From a virus, in IMG/VR virus record IMGVR_UViG_3300021197_001752, positions 64,001 to 128,000 of that record: a stretch of DNA of 64,000 nt. One strand, written 5' to 3'. Both the position numbers and the translations under genes were made by a program. Shown piece by piece: positions 15,308-62,878 of the stretch (position 1 is its first letter; every line of letters begins with the position of its first letter). Below the pieces are notes generated by a model. It had not been told where the DNA came from, ran no database searches, and saw nothing but the letters and a program-made list of their open reading frames with translations.

Positions 15308-15910
15308 TTAGTTGTTATTATACCTGCTTTCTACAATTTTTTTAAATGTTTTTTGGATACCTGGGTTAATTTCTTTTGCAACGGGCATCATGTCATGTCT
15401 AATAATACTTCTCATAAACTTTCTATTATTATTGCCAGGGTCAGTTAGGAAAGGAACATTCTTCCGTGTGCACCAGTCAACTAAGTTTTGTTTTGAGGTA
15501 GATAAGAAAGGACGGATAACATTTTTATTTTGATAAGGGATAAACTTTCCTTTACCATGTACAGATGAAAATAGAAACCACTCAATAACGTCGTCTAAAT
15601 TATGTCCAGTTACAATGGGTAGTTTATAGTCATGAAATCGCTTGTAGCGTTCATCCCGCCAGTGCTCCTCAAGTGACTTGCCGCTTGGACGAGATTCTGA
15701 TAAAACGCTGGTTACAAATGGGATTTTCTTACCTGCGCAATAGCTTCTAAGAAAGTGATAAGCTTCGTCGCCAAAGGTTGTACCATGATCAAAATAGTAT
15801 GCTGTAACATTATGATTATTATTAAGGAAATCTAAGATAGCCATAGAATCAGGACCACCACTAACGGCGACTACTAACTCCCTGGGTAACTTCCCTAAAA
15901 CTTTCAGCAT
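15308..15910 (-). CDS. tilS: tRNA(Ile)-lysidine synthetase, catalytic domain only
   Basis: PP-loop AVSGGPDS, DHG, E...R..RY, TGHNLDD..E, IRPF, DPGN...R..IR. Confidence 0.92.
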   Translation of the reverse strand: MLKVLGKLPRELVVAVSGGPDSMAILDFLNNNHNVTAYYFDHGTTFGDEAYHFLRSYCAGKKIPFVTSVLSESRPSGKSLEEHWRDERYKRFHDYKLPIVTGHNLDDVIEWFLFSSVHGKGKFIPYQNKNVIRPFLSTSKQNLVDWCTRKNVPFLTDPGNNNRKFMRSIIRHDMMPVAKEINPGIQKTFKKIVESRYNNN

Positions 15911-24451: not shown

Positions 24452-25690
24452 TTAGTCTACAGCGATCACTCGCTCATTGGTTTGGAAGTAGGGACGGCTA
24501 GCACCACGGCTGTCCGTTAGCCACAGGCGTTGCGCCTTGCAGGCTTTAGGCTTGGGTGCCTCCATGTCCGTAAGGATAATGATACCATCCACGCTGTTGT
24601 TGTTAGCCCAGTCGGTAGGAGCATCGAAGCAGGTACCGCCACACATAACACGCTCAGCCTTTTGGCTCTTGCCCTTCTTCCAGACGTAGACCTTATCAGC
24701 ATCGACCTGGGTATCGAAGGGTACCACGGTAAACTCAGCGAGCTTAGCCAGGTTATTCAACTCAGCGAAGAAGGCTTCTAGCATCTCATCACTGACACTA
24801 CCAGACTGGTCAATGGCAATAGCAATCTTAGCTTGCCGCCGTACCTTCTTGCCTGGGTGGATGTAGGGGTAACGCTTATCAATACGCTTTACCGTGCTGC
24901 TCTTGCTGGCACGCTGGCTGGTCTTGATGAAGTACCTGAGTACCTTGCGCCAGTCTACCTTGGTCTCAAGGCGCTTCATGATCTCTTTGCGTACCCCACC
25001 TGACACTGAGCCCCAGCCACTGGAAGACTGAGCAGCCTCTTGCGCAGCTTCCTTGATGGCGTTCTTGAGTCGCTCCTTAGCCATCTGGGCTACCTCACTA
25101 CTGGCAGCTTCTTCCCAGCCAGAGTGATCATCAAAGTTACCAGGGCTTCCAGAGCCATTACTATTATTTTCTTCTTGCCCGCCAGAGTCGTCACCGCCAG
25201 ATGACTCACCCTCACCGTCGCCCTCTCCATCACCGTCTTGGCTCTCGCCCTCACCCTCGGACTCTTGGTCTTCAGGCATGTTGGCTAAGTACCACTCAGC
25301 AGACTCACCCTTGGGCATGTCTTCAAAGGGAGCGACACCAGGCATACAGCAGTTGTCAGGTAGCTCACCAACCAAGTGGCTATTGATAGCCAGGTCAGCA
25401 GCGATGTTCCACTTCTGATGAGGGACACCTTCAGGCTTACGGCTGGTAACATGATCAAAGATCAAGTGGTAGAACTCATGTTTGAGTACCCCAGCTTTCT
25501 CTACATCACTCAGGCTTTCAAAGAAGTCTGGGTTGTAAGCCATCTCAAAGTGACCATTCTCTGGATTGACTCTGACACCCGCAGTAGGGATACCATAGTT
25601 TTCCTTCTTTTCAATCTTACGACTTAGTGCAGCAAAGAAAGGCTCTTTGAGCAGCAAGCGATAAGCATGTAGTCTTAGATCAAAACTCAT
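24452..25690 (-). CDS. vWA-domain protein with N-terminal HExxH metallopeptidase (DUF2201-like)
   Basis: LKHEFYH, NIAADLAIN, MIDAS DQSGS, GGT.F, LTD. Confidence 0.9.
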   Translation of the reverse strand: MSFDLRLHAYRLLLKEPFFAALSRKIEKKENYGIPTAGVRVNPENGHFEMAYNPDFFESLSDVEKAGVLKHEFYHLIFDHVTSRKPEGVPHQKWNIAADLAINSHLVGELPDNCCMPGVAPFEDMPKGESAEWYLANMPEDQESEGEGESQDGDGEGDGEGESSGGDDSGGQEENNSNGSGSPGNFDDHSGWEEAASSEVAQMAKERLKNAIKEAAQEAAQSSSGWGSVSGGVRKEIMKRLETKVDWRKVLRYFIKTSQRASKSSTVKRIDKRYPYIHPGKKVRRQAKIAIAIDQSGSVSDEMLEAFFAELNNLAKLAEFTVVPFDTQVDADKVYVWKKGKSQKAERVMCGGTCFDAPTDWANNNSVDGIIILTDMEAPKPKACKAQRLWLTDSRGASRPYFQTNERVIAVD

Positions 25691-25695
25691 TTCAT

Positions 25696-25740
25696 CTCTT
25701 CCTTACAATTTATAGTACCACACTATGGCTACCTGTCAAG
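25696..25740 (-). promoter_or_regulatory. Early-type promoter/RBS cassette 3
   Basis: TTGACA-N16-TACTAT-AAATTGTAAGGAAGAG. Confidence 0.85.
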
Positions 25741-25772
25741 TAAACTACTATATTTATTTGCCCTTTAAAAGC

Positions 25773-25798
25773 AAAAGCCCACCATTACTTCGGTGGGC
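25773..25798 (-). terminator. Intrinsic terminator after AAA+ gene
   Basis: GCCCACC...GGTGGGC followed by TTTT. Confidence 0.7.
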
Positions 25799-25841
25799 CC
25801 TGCCGATCTCAAGGGAACCTTAGTTTGTGTAAGGTAGAGAA

Positions 25842-26894
25842 TCAGGCTCCCAAGATCTTTGCCAGGTACCCAGCGACGGAATCACCGCCAGCAAGCTCAG
25901 CAGCATGAAACAGCTTCACTTTGGGTTGTGGCATCCGAGCGACAACTTGCCACAGCTTCATGGCAGCTTCGCTAGGAAGGGTAACGAAGTACTTAGCCAG
26001 GTTCACAACCTGTTCTTCACTAAGGTCTTCTTCATTGAGTTTTCCAGAAGCGTCAAGCTTCTCAATCAAAGCACAGTTATCATTCAAGGAGAACCCAGCA
26101 AGGGCTTCCGAACGCTCACCGTTGAGCAACTGATCAACCGTAACCTGCCGCTCGTAGTTGGCAGCGAAGTCGTTGAAGGAAACAGCAGCTTCAAAGCCCA
26201 CGAAGGACTGAGCAAGGGCGAACATCTGGGGACCTGGGGACTCCAGAAGCTCAGCTTTAGCCAGCACTTGGTTCAACCGATCCCAGCTACGACGGCTAGG
26301 GTACCGCTTGTTAGGCTCGATGTCACCATTATGCTCAAGGTGATCACGATTCTGGTTGATGAAGTCCCAAACCAGGGAGTCAACATTGTCTTTTGCCCAA
26401 GACAACCAGTCCTCTACCGTGGGCTCAATGTCCCAAACCGACCAACGGTCAAGTTCAGCAGGGTCCATCTCATTGACTTGGTACTGCTCACCGTGCTCAC
26501 CGCCATTGATGGCAGCAAATACGATCGTATCAGCATGAAGGTAGTGCCCGTTGAGCTTTCGGCTGTCCGTCAACTCAAAGATACCCTGGCGAACTTCCAA
26601 GGTGGCACGGTCAACTTCGTCCAAGAAGAGAACAACGGGCTCTTCACAAGCCTGCTTGAACCAATCTGGGGGATTGAAGCTGGTACGGTTGCCTTCAATG
26701 CTAGGCAAGCCAACCAAGTCACCCTCGGTCATCTGGCTGGCACGACGCTCCACTACTGGAAGCTCCATGCCCTTAGCAATCTGGTAAACAACTTGGCTCT
26801 TACCCACACCGTGGCGACCACGAAGCAGGACAGGCAGGCGAGCGGCAGATACCGCAGGCGCTAAGTTCACAAAGGTTTTGAAGTCTACACTCAT
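25842..26894 (-). CDS. MoxR-like AAA+ ATPase
   Basis: Walker A GRHGVGKS, DLVGLP, Walker B LFLDEVDR, AAIN, DPAELDRW, PSRRSW. Confidence 0.92.
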   Translation of the reverse strand: MSVDFKTFVNLAPAVSAARLPVLLRGRHGVGKSQVVYQIAKGMELPVVERRASQMTEGDLVGLPSIEGNRTSFNPPDWFKQACEEPVVLFLDEVDRATLEVRQGIFELTDSRKLNGHYLHADTIVFAAINGGEHGEQYQVNEMDPAELDRWSVWDIEPTVEDWLSWAKDNVDSLVWDFINQNRDHLEHNGDIEPNKRYPSRRSWDRLNQVLAKAELLESPGPQMFALAQSFVGFEAAVSFNDFAANYERQVTVDQLLNGERSEALAGFSLNDNCALIEKLDASGKLNEEDLSEEQVVNLAKYFVTLPSEAAMKLWQVVARMPQPKVKLFHAAELAGGDSVAGYLAKILGA

Positions 26895-45422: not shown

Positions 45423-47006
45423 TTATTCCACTTGTTCCCGTAAAACCGAGCAGTTTGTAGTAATTAAAATACCCGCTGCTGAGGAAGCGTTTGTAACTGC
45501 TGATTTTGTTACTTTCACTGGGTCTATAACACCCACCTCGATCAAGTCCTCGAAGCGACCTGAGCGGACATTGAAACCTATCAACTCAGTGCCCTCCTCT
45601 GTAGGGATCGAGTTGATAACAACGTCACTAGAGATGCCAGCATTATCTAAGATCTGTCGTAGCGGTGAGTAGCAAGCTGTGATCAAGGTTTGATACCCAA
45701 GCAACTCACCCCGAGTCTCAAAGTTTCTCTCTGGTAAAGCCATTGCCGCTCTGATCAGACTGATGCCGCCGCCTGGTACTACACCTTCTTCTTGGGCGCT
45801 GCGCACAGCCTCAAGCGCATCTTCAAATCGATGCTTCTTCTCTTCGACCTCTACCTCTGTTGCACCGCCGACCTGTAGCAGAGACACCCCTGATGCAAGA
45901 CGGGTGATCCTTTCCTGTATCTTACCTGCCTGATGAAGATCTTCCGTAGCCTCAACTTCGTTCTTCAAGGTCTCCACTAAAGAATCCATCTCCTCAAAGT
46001 TGGTGTTGCCGCCAACAAAGGTTGTCCTAACCTTAAGGATCTCTACACTCTTACATGTACCTAAGTGCTCTAACTTGATATCGCTTAGACGGATGCCACT
46101 GTCACGACTGATAAATGTGCCTCCTGTTGTCGTAGCAATATCAGATAAGATAGCTCGGCGCTCCTCGCCGTATTCAGGTACCTTGATTGCAGCGATCTTC
46201 ATTCCGTTACGCATACGGTTGATAATCAAGGCTGCCAGCAATTGACCAGAGATCTCTTCGGCGGCAATGATACAAGGCCTTCCATCTCTAGCGATGACCT
46301 CAAGTACTGGTAGCATCTCCTCCAGTGAATCAAGCTCGTGATCTGTTGTCAGCACTAAAGCATTATTATATTCTACTGCATTTCTTCTGTGGTCAGTAAC
46401 AAACTTAGCTGAAACATAACCTGCTGCAACTTTGAAACCCTCAATGACGTCTAGCTTGGTCTCTAACGACCTGCTCTCTTCAATCTTAACTGCTCCGTCC
46501 TTACCTGCTGCAACTACCGCTGATGCGACTAGCTTACCAATAGTGCTGTCCCCATTCGCTGAGACTGTGGCAACATGCTGGATGTCTTCCTCTGACGAAA
46601 TAGGACTAGACATAGTATCTAGCGTACTCAGGATATCCTCAGTAGCCATGTCAATGCCACGTTTCATCTCAACGCCTGAAACACCTACCGCTAATTGTTT
46701 CTGAGCTTCCTTGAGCAAGTCACGGGCAATCACGACAGTCGTAGTCGTGCCATCGCCACTAGCCTTCTCCGTTTCCATGCTAGCCTGGCGAACCACGTCA
46801 ATCCCTGCCTGCTCAAAGTCATCCTCCACTTGCACTACTCGTGCGACACTGACGCCATCCTTAGTTACAATGGGTGGTGCCCCTCGTTGATACAGGATAA
46901 CATTCTGTCCTGCTGGTCCGAGCGTTGAGCTAACAGCGTTTGCTAGCTTGTTCACCCCTGCCAATAATTTGTTCTGTGTCTCTGCGCCAAATAATATATT
47001 TGCCAT
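45423..47006 (-). CDS. groEL: Chaperonin GroEL
   Basis: TLGPAG, TKDGVSVA, GDGTTT, GVVPGGG, VIDPVKV. Confidence 0.97.
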   Translation of the reverse strand: MANILFGAETQNKLLAGVNKLANAVSSTLGPAGQNVILYQRGAPPIVTKDGVSVARVVQVEDDFEQAGIDVVRQASMETEKASGDGTTTTVVIARDLLKEAQKQLAVGVSGVEMKRGIDMATEDILSTLDTMSSPISSEEDIQHVATVSANGDSTIGKLVASAVVAAGKDGAVKIEESRSLETKLDVIEGFKVAAGYVSAKFVTDHRRNAVEYNNALVLTTDHELDSLEEMLPVLEVIARDGRPCIIAAEEISGQLLAALIINRMRNGMKIAAIKVPEYGEERRAILSDIATTTGGTFISRDSGIRLSDIKLEHLGTCKSVEILKVRTTFVGGNTNFEEMDSLVETLKNEVEATEDLHQAGKIQERITRLASGVSLLQVGGATEVEVEEKKHRFEDALEAVRSAQEEGVVPGGGISLIRAAMALPERNFETRGELLGYQTLITACYSPLRQILDNAGISSDVVINSIPTEEGTELIGFNVRSGRFEDLIEVGVIDPVKVTKSAVTNASSAAGILITTNCSVLREQVE

Positions 47007-47012
47007 CTTACT

Positions 47013-48032
47013 CTACTCCCCACGTTCTTTCGGATAGGACAAGCCTACCTTTTTTGGATTATTATCATTGAACAACTTGTATAGTTGTTTTGTTTCTTTC
47101 TTTGTTCTGCCTAAGATAAAACAGTACTTGTGCTTCGGTGGCACGACACGCCACTCACAGCTTTCTCGGTACTGTTTCTCTTTGGCTTTGAGCTTGTCTT
47201 TCAAGCCAGGGGTAGTAACTTCCATTTCTTTCCATTTGGGAGTATACTTACCCATGTATTTCTTCCATTCGCTAGCACCTATGCCTAATGACTCAGCATA
47301 GCGTTTATATTTAGATTTCTTGCGAAAATCTCTATCACTAAACCAACCTCGGGCTTTGTCCTTAGGATCACGATATACTTTCGCTGTGCCCGACGTTTGA
47401 CCAAGGTAGGTCCAGTTGAGTGCCTGGTAGATTGTCCCTAACTCTTTAGCAAGAGGATCACTGTAGGCTTCAAACGCTCTGAACCTTGTGTTCTGAACCA
47501 TCCACTTACACGATCTGGATACAATCCAAGATCCCAAATTCTTAGGAGCCCAACTGATAGACGCACCTCGTGATACTAGCTTGACCATGTTCTTGTTATC
47601 TTTACCGATCAGGTGGCTGAAGGTATTAGGAACTGCCATAACCACAACGCCTGCTAACTCGCCTGTCTTTTTCATCCTAGCTGTGAACCTGTGGGTTGGT
47701 CGATTAGGGAGACAACCTAGGAACTCGTGGCGAATAATAAAGTCTCTGACCTCATCGCATTGTTCTTTGTACTTCTTGACGTCGGCTCTGTATTCCTTAT
47801 GTTTCTTCTTATACACTTTTTCAGTATAACAATGTGGCAGCATCAGCTTAGCGGGTTCCGCAACAGCCACAAAGTCAAAGTCAGTAGTGCGTAGAGACTC
47901 AGCCCATGCCAAGTCCTTACCTATCTCTTGTAGGTCTTCTTGCATGTTGCGAAGCCTAACTTCGTATTGCCAACAATGCTCTGCTTCTAAATCTTTGAAT
48001 CGCTCAAAGGGGTCAGCTTTCTTAGCTTTCAC
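47013..48032 (-). CDS. Mom-like (GNAT-fold) DNA modification protein
   Basis: FII.HE.LG, AYSDP...GTIYQALNWTYLG, KHKY. Confidence 0.7.
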   Translation of the reverse strand: MKAKKADPFERFKDLEAEHCWQYEVRLRNMQEDLQEIGKDLAWAESLRTTDFDFVAVAEPAKLMLPHCYTEKVYKKKHKEYRADVKKYKEQCDEVRDFIIRHEFLGCLPNRPTHRFTARMKKTGELAGVVVMAVPNTFSHLIGKDNKNMVKLVSRGASISWAPKNLGSWIVSRSCKWMVQNTRFRAFEAYSDPLAKELGTIYQALNWTYLGQTSGTAKVYRDPKDKARGWFSDRDFRKKSKYKRYAESLGIGASEWKKYMGKYTPKWKEMEVTTPGLKDKLKAKEKQYRESCEWRVVPPKHKYCFILGRTKKETKQLYKLFNDNNPKKVGLSYPKERGE

Positions 48033-55410: not shown

Positions 55411-56337
55411 TTATTTACTTCCCATTTCTAACAAGACATTCCTAAATTCTTCTTGAATGATTTTGTTTAGAGCACTGTTTGTCATTTTGATATGACGTTG
55501 CTTGCTTTCGCCAAATGGTAGCTCGCCCTGACCTTCTGGCTCGGCTGCCAAACCTTTGGTCTGACTCTTATAAAGGCTGCCGCCTTGCGCCAATAGATTC
55601 AACACACCCTTTACGCTGCCGATGTTTCCATGACCACCTCTTAGTTTCTTGAGGGCATCATATTTCTCGTCTTCGAGCTTATCATCACCAAAGGGGAACT
55701 GTACACTAAGGTTGAATGCGGTTTTAGATGTGTCGCCTCGGTTTGGAATAGCCTTGAGTTCTATCTCAATATGCTCTGGGTAGAATATATCATACCTCAA
55801 AACACCTGTGGTGATTGACTCTATGTGAGCAATTGGCTTGTTCTTCATATCTGGAATAATATTTGCCAGCACTTTAGCTAAGTGATCTTCATACTCTACA
55901 GCAGCTTTGACCAATGCATCATAAAGGTCGTTGTCTCTACCACGATCTAGCAAGCCAGCGTGGATGGCCTTGTTCGTCGCCGCCAGGTTCATCTCGCCTT
56001 GGGTTTCTTCTGCTAGCTCTTGTCTAATAATATTTTGTAGTTGTTGTTTTGTGATTTTCATTTTATTCTCCCTTTCATCTAGACCGCCATACATTGTGAC
56101 TATCTGTACCGCAGCCTTGTTTACGAGGTCAAAAGGTATCTTATCAAATCTACTCTGGAGATTTTTGATAGTGTATTGTATCTTTTCTTCTTTGTTGTTG
56201 CCTTTGGTAAACTTCTTAATTTTGTCAACACCACCAAATTGCTTAATATAAACGTCAACCATTTTCTGCACGTCCGCTTCGTCGGTGCTGAGCGCCTCTC
56301 TAATCATTTGACGTATTTGATCTTTGGTAATCTTCAT
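55411..56337 (-). CDS. MKITK-leader protein with three leader copies
   Basis: MKITKDQIRQMIRE, internal MKITKQQLQNIIRQE, C-terminal IKMTNSALNKIIQEE. Confidence 0.75.
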   Translation of the reverse strand: MKITKDQIRQMIREALSTDEADVQKMVDVYIKQFGGVDKIKKFTKGNNKEEKIQYTIKNLQSRFDKIPFDLVNKAAVQIVTMYGGLDERENKMKITKQQLQNIIRQELAEETQGEMNLAATNKAIHAGLLDRGRDNDLYDALVKAAVEYEDHLAKVLANIIPDMKNKPIAHIESITTGVLRYDIFYPEHIEIELKAIPNRGDTSKTAFNLSVQFPFGDDKLEDEKYDALKKLRGGHGNIGSVKGVLNLLAQGGSLYKSQTKGLAAEPEGQGELPFGESKQRHIKMTNSALNKIIQEEFRNVLLEMGSK

Positions 56338-56341
56338 TTTG

Positions 56342-56515
56342 CTATCCTTCGCTATCTACCAGTCTGTCTAGGATAGCTTGCAGTCTTTCATATTGGGACT
56401 TATGTGCCTGCACGGCTTTCTTAAGCTCTGCTATAACATCATTCATCGTGTCTTTGTCACTATCTGAGATTTCTTCCCTAATAATCTTTCTTAGCTCGCC
56501 TTTGCTAATCTTCAT
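56342..56515 (-). CDS. MKITK-leader protein, 57 aa (not in ORF track)
   Basis: Hand translation MKISKGELRKIIREEISDSDK...; TAATG coupling. Confidence 0.75.
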   Translation of the reverse strand: MKISKGELRKIIREEISDSDKDTMNDVIAELKKAVQAHKSQYERLQAILDRLVDSEG

Positions 56516-56763
56516 TAGTTCTTGCCGTCTTCATTTGCTATTGCTTGCATTATCATACGCAGTGAATCGGCGTCCTCCTGAAGCGGGTGATAATCGCCTT
56601 CTTGGTTTTCAATATACTCCGTAAGAGCATTATAGCCGTCTTCCAGAAGATCAAGGGCTCTGGCGAGAGGACCGCCGTAGGAGTCATAAGGGGCATCACC
56701 CTCAAACTCTTTGAGTAACTCTTCTTTAATAATCTTTTGTAGTTCTTGTTTGGTGATTTTCAT
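56515..56763 (-). CDS. MKITK-leader protein
   Basis: MKITKQELQKIIKEE. Confidence 0.75.
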   Translation of the reverse strand: MKITKQELQKIIKEELLKEFEGDAPYDSYGGPLARALDLLEDGYNALTEYIENQEGDYHPLQEDADSLRMIMQAIANEDGKN

Positions 56764-56951
56764 TTTCTATCTGCTCCCCTGGATAAGGTGTTTAGAGCAT
56801 TATAAATTTCTTTCATCCGAGAATCCTCAAAACTAAGTTCGTTACTTGTGTCATCCACAATGTCTTGTAAAGCGCCCTGTGCGCTGGCTAGCACCTGTGA
56901 AGTATACGCTTCTTTGATTATGCTTCGTAGCTCTTCTTTAGTGATTTTCAT
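56760..56951 (-). CDS. MKITK-leader protein
   Basis: MKITKEELRSIIKEA. Confidence 0.75.
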   Translation of the reverse strand: MKITKEELRSIIKEAYTSQVLASAQGALQDIVDDTSNELSFEDSRMKEIYNALNTLSRGADRK

Positions 56952-56954
56952 TTC

Positions 56955-57326
56955 TTAGCCCCAGTCGTCTTCGTCTGGTAGACGGCGACCTGACTCTTTG
57001 GTTAGCATCTGAGCGGCTTCCACAGCTATTTGCTCGTCTGCGCCTTGGTCCTCTAGTTCCTTCTTGAACTCCATAAACACACCAGTGGTTGCTTTAAAAC
57101 GTTCATCGCTCAGCATCGCCTTTTGACCGTCGCTGAGAGTCTTGCCTAGAGCCACAGCCCTAAGGACATAAGTGTATTGGTATGTCTCTTTGTCAGTCAT
57201 TTCTTCCTTATCCAAGCCAAGCTCCTTGAGGATTGCTTTGACAACCTCGTCTCGACGCTCAAGCTGGTTACCTTTATATGTGACTTCTGTAATATACTTG
57301 CGCCACTCTGATAATAATTCTTTCAT
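56955..57326 (-). CDS. Protein with MKELLSEWRKYITE leader
   Basis: Second leader type, ending in Glu. Confidence 0.7.
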   Translation of the reverse strand: MKELLSEWRKYITEVTYKGNQLERRDEVVKAILKELGLDKEEMTDKETYQYTYVLRAVALGKTLSDGQKAMLSDERFKATTGVFMEFKKELEDQGADEQIAVEAAQMLTKESGRRLPDEDDWG

Positions 57327-57427
57327 CAACATGCCCCTTCGCAGCTAGCGCAAGCGCAACAGCCGCAGCAGCAGCAACAGTGGCTGCTATTGAATAGATT
57401 AACTAATTTGTGTAATAGGTTTTTCAT
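57326..57427 (-). CDS. 33-aa peptide with 10 Cys (metallothionein-like), not in ORF track
   Basis: MKNLLHKLVNLFNSSHCCCCCGCCACASCEGAC; ATGA overlap upstream and TGATG overlap downstream. Confidence 0.7.
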   Translation of the reverse strand: MKNLLHKLVNLFNSSHCCCCCGCCACASCEGAC

Positions 57428-57693
57428 GAGTCCATCTCCAAGGCTAACATGATCTCGTCCATTGCCTTAGAGATGCTCCTAGCAGCATCATCAAGATAAC
57501 TCTGCGCATCTTGGATTGGAACACTGCCACCCATCTTATCAACAAGGTCGTTTGAAAGTGAACCGATCTTTTGACGCATCTCCATTAAAGCTGCAACATG
57601 TGGCTGGTCTGCGTGAGGGTTTTTACCAAGGTCAGCGTAGCGCCCGACCTCTTCTTTGATAATCTGCCTTAGCTTTGCTTTGGTGATCTTCAT
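57424..57693 (-). CDS. MKITK-leader protein
   Basis: MKITKAKLRQIIKEE. Confidence 0.75.
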   Translation of the reverse strand: MKITKAKLRQIIKEEVGRYADLGKNPHADQPHVAALMEMRQKIGSLSNDLVDKMGGSVPIQDAQSYLDDAARSISKAMDEIMLALEMDS

Positions 57694-57694
57694 T

Positions 57695-57934
57695 CTAGAC
57701 GTCCATCTTGCTCATATCGATATCGCCAGCAGGCTCACCGCTTGGCTTCGTTCCGCCATGGCGATTCTGCATAGCCAGAAGATCATCCATAATCTCTGGT
57801 GTTCCGCCCATCTCTTGGGCTACTCGCATAAGCTCTTGGAACAGCACTTCCATTTGTGTGCTGTACTCTTCGTTGAGTTCTTTAGCAACTTCTTCTTTAA
57901 TGATTTCTTTGAGTTGTTCTTTAGTAATCTTCAT
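57695..57934 (-). CDS. MKITK-leader protein
   Basis: MKITKEQLKEIIKEE. Confidence 0.75.
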   Translation of the reverse strand: MKITKEQLKEIIKEEVAKELNEEYSTQMEVLFQELMRVAQEMGGTPEIMDDLLAMQNRHGGTKPSGEPAGDIDMSKMDV

Positions 57935-62077: not shown

Positions 62078-62878
62078 TTATCCGATCAACCTTCCTATGT
62101 CCGAAGTGATTGCTAATGCCATTATTCCTACCACAAATGCTAAACCGACATAGGACAACCAAGTACGAGTTTTGTACTTGACCTTTCGCCCCATGACTGC
62201 CTCTGTTATAGAGAATACCACATGTCCGCCATCTAGTAAAGGGATTGGTAACAAATTAATTAAACCTAAGTTAATACTCAAGAAAGCTATCCACTGATAT
62301 ATAAAGCCATTGTCTTTAGTTTGGGTTGATCTTGCCTGTGCCTGCTCTGTGATCTCATAGATAGCTACGGGTCCGCCAACGTCTTTTACTGACACCCCTC
62401 TTTCCTTGATCACATCTATTGCCTTGTATATAGTATAATACATCTTGTGTGTTGTGTCAACACTTGCTTTCCAAGCGTATGGCGCACTAACCGTGCCCAC
62501 GTTTGAACCATCTGGTGCCTTCACATCTGGCCAAGGCATTCCCCAAAGGTACAAAAAGAATATAGCATAAGGTAGGGCGAGGTTAGTGACGGGTCCTGCT
62601 AAAGCAGTTATCATTCTTTTAAGTGGGTGTACCGCCCAAAAGGATCTAGGATTCCTTGTTGCATTATTATAATCCTCTTCTCCCTCGAACTTAACATAGC
62701 CGCCAAGAGGCAATATACCAAGAGACCACTTGTTGCCAAATGCATTGAATGAAAAAATTTTCGGTCCAAAGCCCACTGAGAACTCTTTGATGCCGATGCC
62801 GCATAATCGACCGACAACATAATGCCCCAACTCATGAATGAAAACTAATGATAATATTATTACTAATAAGAGAAGCAT
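62078..62878 (-). CDS. Site-2 (M50) intramembrane zinc protease, RseP-like, no PDZ
   Basis: HELGH, FSVGFGP, PLGGYV, AGPVTN, GPVAI, NLLPIPLLDGGH. Confidence 0.93.
   Translation of the reverse strand: MLLLLVIILSLVFIHELGHYVVGRLCGIGIKEFSVGFGPKIFSFNAFGNKWSLGILPLGGYVKFEGEEDYNNATRNPRSFWAVHPLKRMITALAGPVTNLALPYAIFFLYLWGMPWPDVKAPDGSNVGTVSAPYAWKASVDTTHKMYYTIYKAIDVIKERGVSVKDVGGPVAIYEITEQAQARSTQTKDNGFIYQWIAFLSINLGLINLLPIPLLDGGHVVFSITEAVMGRKVKYKTRTWLSYVGLAFVVGIMALAITSDIGRLIG

Follow-up and report, generated by a model that had tools for sequence, protein, structure and literature searches.

A conserved Cys10His2 micro-protein gene among leader-tagged small proteins of large marine phages, with a possible metal-thiolate core

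Can an open reading frame (ORF) of 33 codons, ten of which encode cysteine, be a gene in its own right, and what would its product do for a phage? The question is raised by a stretch of viral DNA of 64,000 nucleotides (nt; hereafter the window), which comprises bases 64001-128000 of the IMG/VR virus record IMGVR_UViG_3300021197_001752 (hereafter G000; 146.7 kb, estimated to be 81% complete) and carries all of its long ORFs on the minus strand. An earlier examination of the letters alone (the sequence-only reading) had pointed out, at 57326-57427, a peptide of 33 amino acids (aa) with 10 Cys in its last 17 residues. This description is correct: in the peptide MKNLLHKLVNLFNSSHCCCCCGCCACASCEGAC the ten Cys occupy residues 17-21, 23, 24, 26, 29 and 33, and the ORF recurs in relatives to a degree far above chance. 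The ORF is almost certainly a real gene. Concerning its product, the preferred reading, to which roughly even chances are given, is that of an amphipathic docking helix joined to a Cys10His2 metal-thiolate cluster, which would act together with a set of leader-tagged small proteins resembling the internal proteins of phage T4.

The start codon of the ORF (ATG, 57427-57425) shares bases with the stop codon (TGA, 57426-57424) of an upstream gene of 89 codons, resulting in ATGA, and its own stop codon (TGA, 57328-57326) overlaps by one base with the ATG (57326-57324) of the downstream gene, resulting in TGATG. Both overlaps had already been described and are confirmed; for the downstream gene, the ORF list also offers an earlier ATG at 57332, the start conserved in relatives being that at 57326. 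Five close relatives (DnaE 89-95% identical; from 67 loci fetched with DnaE) share the identical 33-codon ORF, in which only three amino acid sites are variable (L/F4, N/S10, A/T27) as opposed to many synonymous changes, and in which the stop is situated at one position though the stop codon itself differs (TGA, TAG or TAA). Three arrangements of the flanks are found among these relatives, and those ORFs that do not overlap with their neighbours bear an AGGAG or AGGAA of their own.

More distant members of the family were collected by means of sequence patterns. The back-translated pattern HCCCCCGCCAC led to 22 viral contigs, all 22 of which contain the peptide ORF with identical frame and stop position, and a relaxed core pattern produced at least 120 matches in metagenome contigs. 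Pooled over the window and the viral, genome and metagenome sequences, 145 pattern matches were obtained, of which about 18 without the leader (mostly off-frame runs in GC-rich sequence) were discarded. Among the matches listed, to which all pooled family counts refer, there are 124 loci, 119 of them non-identical, and 136 distinct peptides in all. Because the search patterns fix eight of the Cys, features that they leave unfixed, i.e., the leader codons and His6, were examined instead. Leader codons 2-15, which are fixed by no pattern, exhibit synonymous differences near saturation (pS, the proportion of synonymous sites that differ, 0.80) and far fewer non-synonymous ones (pN 0.28; pN/pS 0.35). 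All 100 of the distinct nucleotide sequences encode His6, which no core pattern requires, 70 of them by CAC and 30 by CAT. A second scan, for which just His6 and a subsequent His16-Cys-Cys were needed, led to 69 viral contigs, 67 of them with the family ORF in identical frame and with identical stop. The exact block CCCCCGCCxC is found in 55 of the 59 distinct family peptides from this leader-only scan, the four exceptions being G22D, G22Y, C26H and one reshuffled sequence, CCCCGTCSCSCC.

Frame conservation, which the sequence-only reading had proposed to check, thus holds in near and distant relatives alike, and the neutral microsatellite that it had considered as a counter-explanation is ruled out: TGC and TGT occur in a ratio of about 50:50 at every Cys codon, such that the codons are scrambled synonymously, and the length of the Cys run is constant throughout the leader-only scan. 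Of 140 distinct regions upstream of family ORFs, 137 contain a motif similar to a Shine-Dalgarno (SD) site at positions -16 to -5, and each of the 11 peptide-bearing phage records contains a single copy of the gene. Judged by purifying selection, the SD sites and the fixed frame and length, the gene is translated, as the tight overlaps had led the earlier reader to expect. The T4 late-promoter motif TATAAATA was found in 1 of 140 upstream regions and is uninformative. A contig from an RNA library spans 57411-57663, i.e., the upstream gene and no more than 17 bases of the ORF at its 5' end, but contigs cannot show transcription. Assembled contigs also tend to be interrupted where the ORF begins, e.g., contigs of run X5 end at 57420 and begin at 57426.

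Overlapping starts and stops that couple the ORF to its neighbours would also suit a cysteine-sensing leader peptide, in which ribosomes stalling at the ten Cys codons under scarce Cys-tRNA would set the translation of the coupled downstream gene. Mycobacterial polycysteine upstream ORFs (uORFs) act as such attenuators, and at one locus of the family (L084) the next gene is indeed similar to CysK. However, an attenuator leaves the strong conservation of residues other than Cys (His6 in 100 of 100 sequences, pN/pS of 0.35 in the leader) unaccounted for, the ORF possesses its own SD site in 137 of 140 cases, and the downstream gene differs among loci. Moreover, no terminator-like site is found on the nearby coding strand, and the 1-nt overlap leaves no room for one. 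We consider this explanation highly improbable.

The family consensus is MKxFLH(K/R)LxNLFNxxH-CCCCCGCCxC, followed by a short tail. Cys are exactly ten in 128 of the 136 peptides, across tail classes that differ in Cys spacing, and His are exactly two in 130 of the 136, across the different tail layouts. Tails of class I (xxCxxxC), to which the window peptide belongs, are found in 62 peptides, those of class II (CC at the end) in 57, those of class III (class I with a basic extension) in 12, and other tails in five. The motif RGRP, which gives the tail an AT-hook-like, basic character, is contained in 11 of the 136 peptides, and one class III member exhibits a weak match to AT_hook (E 0.18). 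Members extended in this way are situated in L079 (3956-4105), L149, L144, L182, L257, L274 and L284, and also include the peptides P0001 and P0003; L110 instead possesses an inserted basic stretch ahead of the last Cys pair. The leader is amphipathic, as stated earlier, with a hydrophobic moment (muH) of 0.59 that is reached by 2% of shuffles and with a hydrophobic face formed by positions 4, 5, 8, 11 and 12. A monomer model (AlphaFold2, AF2) places a helix at residues 2-11, with low confidence. Two longer database proteins contain the peptide as well, P0005 (114 aa) at its C-terminus after an unrelated N-terminal stretch of 79 aa, and P0006 (155 aa) at its N-terminus before low-complexity sequence; both fusions are probably artefacts of gene calling or assembly.

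The fixed number of Cys and His and their invariant order speak in favour of a definite structure to which every Cys and every His would contribute. For a Cys10His2 set, a polynuclear metal-thiolate cluster would be the obvious candidate, and the 'metallothionein-like metal or redox sink' of the sequence-only reading is plausible in view of this fixed count. Extreme thiol density would also serve a metal-free thiol/disulfide peptide, acting either as a sacrificial reductant or by intermolecular disulfide cross-links (protamine-like if combined with a basic tail), e.g., in the protection or condensation of DNA. The AT-hook-like basic tails of 11-12 of the 136 peptides and the thioredoxin-like neighbours in two loci (L081, L084) are in line with this, but a plain thiol store needs neither an invariant CCCCCGCCxC order nor exactly ten Cys nor two invariant His, such that a purely redox-active peptide appears unlikely.

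In its form, with a conserved short leader ahead of a core rich in Cys, the peptide would also suit a precursor of a ribosomally synthesized and post-translationally modified peptide (RiPP), which had been named as an alternative. The leader would then be recognized by an enzyme converting the core, either into thiazoles as in the streptolysin S type, the precursors of which possess a consecutive Cys run too, or into thioether or sactionine links by a radical SAM enzyme. No modifying enzyme had been visible in the window, and none emerged from the wider search: none of the 11 peptide-bearing records, of which three are at least 95% complete, gave a match to YcaO (PF02624; control positive in 5 of 14 genomes) or to radical SAM (PF04055; control positive in 14 of 14 genomes), and a Pfam scan of 141 ORFs of G000 revealed no YcaO, nitroreductase, LanC or DUF692. 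Furthermore, no conserved enzyme gene adjoins the peptide across the 119 loci, and conservation is strongest in the core, not in the leader, the reverse of the usual RiPP pattern. With both enzymes absent from the 11 records, a RiPP precursor is very unlikely.

Concerning the genomic surroundings, putative head-cargo genes had been suspected next to the peptide, and it does sit among genes with shared leaders. The gene order in the window is tag1-tag1-PEPTIDE-tag2-tag1-tag1-tag1-tag1 (Table 1), where tag1 denotes the N-terminal leader MKITKxxLxxIIKEE and tag2 the leader MKxLLxxWRKYIxE. G000 possesses ten tagged ORFs, eight with tag1 and two with tag2, which are situated at 55411-57934 of the window (minus strand) and at bases 8982, 10296 and 11331 of G000; in 1.77 Mb of related loci, 150 distinct N-termini with tag1 and 27 with tag2 are found. 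Seven of the ten tagged ORFs of G000 are no more than 3 kb away from the peptide, compared to three of eight in G004 and the only one in G002 (both complete), and the next downstream gene is tagged in all three records. A tagged ORF is located at most 2.5 kb from the peptide in 58 of the 119 loci, many of which are short, and in 43 of the 119 a tagged ORF starts between -700 and +200 nt of the His16 codon. At 70 distinct loci, namely those in which the downstream flank extends over at least 350 nt, the next downstream ORF bears a strict tag1 in 26 cases and a strict tag2 in five, is of another kind in 36 and absent in three; about 16 of these 36 are tagged by eye, with a shifted start, which raises the strict count of 31 of 70 to about 47. 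By position and overlap, the peptide gene lies within the tagged arrays and is usually translationally coupled to them. The array of the window begins downstream of a gene for a DnaE-type polymerase, around 570 bases upstream of the peptide ORF, and the 308-aa product of its last gene (55411-56337) contains a second, internal copy of tag1.

Table 1. The Cys10His2 micro-protein gene and the features around it (positions in the window; residues of the peptide where so indicated)
Feature	Position	Strand	Remarks
Cys10His2 micro-protein gene	57326..57427	(-)	33 aa, MKNLLHKLVNLFNSSHCCCCCGCCACASCEGAC
Leader of the peptide	residues 1-16		predicted amphipathic helix; invariant His6 and His16
Block CCCCCGCCxC of the peptide	residues 17-26		
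Tail of the peptide, ASCEGAC			class I; Cys29 and Cys33
GGAG, Shine-Dalgarno-like site	57436..57439	(-)	8 nt 5' of the peptide ATG, within the end of the upstream gene
Upstream 89-aa gene, tag1 leader (MKITKxxLxxIIKEE)	57424..57693	(-)	TGA overlaps the peptide ATG
Downstream 123-aa gene, tag2 leader (MKELLSEWRKYITE)	56955..57326	(-)	start at 57326 according to relatives
79-aa tag1 gene	57695..57934	(-)	opens the array, following the gene for the DnaE-type polymerase
Four more tag1 genes (63, 82, 57 and 308 aa)	55411..56951	(-)	same array

The arrays occur in phages with heads of the T4 type. A head protease of the gp21 type (S77) is encoded in seven of the 11 peptide-bearing records and in all three of those that are at least 95% complete, among them G006 (95% complete; its DnaE is 95% identical to that of G000); no S77 protease was found in G000 (81% complete). 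In G004 (bases 101514-102270), a tag1 ORF of 79 aa starts at 102031 straight after the S77 protease gene, which ties the tag to the head module. In another, T4-like contig (L070, 29-5064), the peptide is situated between the gene for a gp20-type portal protein and that for an S77 prohead protease, the site at which T4 itself carries small genes of the prohead core.

A bolder reading is that of a packaged metallo-cargo: the peptide might be loaded into the prohead together with the tagged internal proteins, be carried on the DNA and be injected with the genome, and at the onset of infection it might deliver or sequester metal or an Fe-S cluster or shield the DNA from oxidation. Carriage on DNA would account for the AT-hook-tailed variants. 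This extension is tentative and less likely than not; to our knowledge, no virion-borne metal-cluster peptide has been described so far, and a search of the literature revealed nothing resembling one.

A further set of neighbours points to sulfur metabolism. Within 5 kb of the peptide, 16 of the 119 loci possess at least one gene for IscU, IscA, a CysK-like enzyme, a thioredoxin-like protein or a cupin. The IscU neighbours score above the NCBIfam cut-off, and in L075, L078, L082, L110 and others, IscU together with IscA is 1-2.5 kb away from the peptide. The CysK-like pyridoxal phosphate (PLP) enzyme has its best match in cysKM (E 2.9e-76, below the curated cut-off), and in L084 its gene begins a few bases past the stop of the peptide. 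Thioredoxin-like genes are located nearby in L081 and L084, and a cupin gene is found upstream in four loci, labelled as cysteine dioxygenase in PHROGs and matched in Pfam only by generic cupin families. As an arrangement in its own right, a 'sulfur island' consisting of cupin, Cys peptide, small ORFs, IscU, IscA and the CysK-like PLP enzyme can be described from related marine phages with T4-type heads (L078, 3500-6750; also L075, L082, L110, L121, L142 and L084).

Such a neighbourhood would be expected if the peptide were an intracellular sulfur or iron-sulfur (Fe-S) helper, i.e., a carrier or buffer of Fe-S clusters, persulfide sulfur or cysteine that works with IscU, IscA or CysK of the phage or the host and is not head cargo. 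This explanation differs from the preferred reading mostly in place and partner. Apart from the 16 loci as such, it can draw on the close distance of IscU, which was detected in five of the 13 records searched and lies at most 2.5 kb from the peptide in four of these five, on the CysK-like gene straight after the peptide in L084, on the thioredoxin-like genes and on the four cupins. Yet 14 of the 16 loci belong to one lineage, characterized by class II tails, and therefore represent few independent events. In the fifth record (G002), IscU is separated from the peptide by 30 kb, and it is absent from G000 (81% complete), G004 (100%) and G006 (95%), and the cysteine dioxygenase label of the cupin is not supported by Pfam. 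A helper confined to the cell is thus rather doubtful, and the sulfur and Fe-S context appears to be real but lineage-limited support for a role in sulfur or metal chemistry.

Beyond the records discussed above, relatives of the peptide are scarce in databases. A profile search over 1.84 billion representative proteins gave eight matches, seven of which are unannotated members of the family; members from databases include variants, e.g., with Ser within the Cys run. A homologue search with a natural family member of 49 aa gave one match. The core pattern was matched 20 times over the genomes of 185,579 species; 18 of these matches, off-frame in GC-rich genomes and without leader, were dropped, and the two with the leader are both from metagenome-assembled genomes (MAGs). 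Their peptide contigs contain phage-like genes, and a T4-type head protease is encoded on the peptide's own contig in one MAG and on another contig in the other. Among 50,697 records of cultured phages, no match was obtained by blastn with 4 kb around the ORF or by tblastn with the peptide, the tblastn blank being uninformative owing to the short query and the low-complexity filter; likewise, no close cultured relative was found for DnaE and for a neighbouring protein of 1047 aa. A literature search, which did not cover subscription journals, yielded no paper on such a peptide. DNA of the G000 phage is present in seawater and marine metagenomes from several studies (public runs). As far as these searches extend, the family is new, unannotated and found only in phages, namely large marine ones. 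A metagenome contig of 382 bases (run X9, record 8) matches the window only at 57347-57379 (33 bases with three differences) and has unrelated flanks; it probably stems from a second phage of that sample and represents a further member of the family.

The preferred reading, a docking helix combined with a metal-thiolate cluster, would then comprise the following steps. The Cys/His set would wrap a defined polynuclear cluster, which might be a four-metal one of the Zn/Cd type, a larger Cu(I) one or an Fe-S one; the N-terminal helix would dock the peptide onto a partner or onto its own copies; and the peptide would act alongside the set resembling T4 internal proteins, possibly within the prohead or virion. 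A tie to Fe-S and cysteine supply may be added in one lineage. The peptide is best read as metallothionein-like in its chemistry, not in its ancestry.

Several points weigh against this reading. Five adjacent Cys are geometrically awkward as ligands and unusual in metallothioneins. Most members were found by patterns fixing eight of the ten Cys, and unbiased evidence comes solely from the leader and tail and from the leader-only scan. The AF2 model has a low confidence (pLDDT, predicted local distance difference test, 67.7). No metallothionein or other Pfam family was found for 18 members by hmmscan at E values up to 10, where the only matches were SPC22, DUF2477 and AT_hook, all with E 0.18 or worse; a profile search of the PDB with the family gave 0 matches, and the ESM Atlas offered no usable match or cluster. 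The lineage restriction of the sulfur context and the three records lacking IscU count here as well.

Further points on the same side concern the capsid. The possibility that the peptide leader diverged from a copy of one of the two tags was considered and rejected, as its scores against the position-specific scoring matrices (PSSMs) are reached by 31% (tag1) and 23% (tag2) of MK-starting ORFs. The leader was found on no other protein: over 1.77 Mb, 185 of 185 matches to a leader regular expression continue with HCC. It also lacks the terminal Glu of the tags, Glu being outside the top five residues everywhere between positions 2 and 15; N/D, S and K/N predominate at 13-15, with His following at 16. 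The head protease cuts at the motif (L/I)-x-E, in which the leader does not end. Since the leader is unique, unlike the tags and devoid of a terminal Glu, loading into the capsid would follow from guilt by association only. The peptide thus consistently accompanies the tagged genes, but by sequence criteria it is not tagged cargo itself.

Other genes of G000 are given for completeness. They encode homologues of GroEL and GroES, a TilS-like PP-loop enzyme, a Mom-like protein, a pair consisting of a MoxR-type AAA protein and a DUF2201 VWA/metallopeptidase, and an SlyD/FKBP-type isomerase without metal-binding tail; the positions of this set are 45423-47006, 15308-15910, 47013-48032 and 24452-26894 in the window and 130321-130638 and 136934-137353 in G000. 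A membrane protease of the RseP type (M50; window 62078-62878, minus strand; TIGR00054, E 2.3e-55) is without most of the length of cellular RseP.

The gene is almost wholly missed by gene callers and family databases (seven unannotated members among 1.84 billion representative proteins), and at the same time it is a single-copy, strongly constrained gene of many large marine phages with T4-type heads. ORFs of fewer than 40 residues wedged between overlapping genes can thus be core genes of phages. With 31-34 residues and a fixed Cys10His2 set, the peptide is compact and easily made, and its metal chemistry is directly testable. If it does bind metal, phages would carry a metallothionein-like module of their own, which would bear on the economy of trace metals (Zn, Cu, Fe) and reduced sulfur in the ocean during infection; should it be carried in the virion alongside the tagged cargo, a new kind of injected phage component would be added. 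A phage-borne cysteine synthase beside genes for an Fe-S scaffold is noteworthy in itself.

Among known systems, the mycobacterial polycysteine uORFs resemble the peptide gene in being short ORFs with a run of Cys codons, which in the family is sometimes situated directly 5' of a cysteine-synthase-like gene (L084). The differences are as follows: the peptide is conserved outside its Cys, has its own SD site, is followed by varied genes and is not accompanied by a terminator. The precursors of linear azoles of the streptolysin S type share with it the short leader and the consecutive Cys thereafter, whereas the Cys block of the peptide is invariant, no cyclodehydratase is found in the 11 phage records and no role as a toxin is indicated.

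The internal proteins of T4 are diverse and have a capsid-targeting sequence as their sole common element (PMC3012670). Similar to such cargo, the peptide gene is situated in arrays of unrelated small proteins with common N-terminal tags, which bear a resemblance to that sequence, in phages with a protease of the gp21 type (S77), and some members possess basic tails of a DNA-binding type; unlike capsid-targeted proteins of T4, the peptide has a leader of its own, which is not significantly tag-like and is without the terminal Glu motif.

Concerning metallothioneins, the bacterial SmtA/BmtA proteins hold a Zn4Cys9His2 cluster, and Cup1 of yeast is a copper thionein. The peptide deviates from them in its five consecutive Cys, its conserved amphipathic N-terminal helix and its aromatic residues, and in belonging to a family that is confined to phages and is without match in Pfam or the PDB. 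It is similar to them in that it is very small and dense in Cys, in that its Cys part has no other obvious determinant of a fold, and in that the number of its Cys ligands, together with the His, is fixed.
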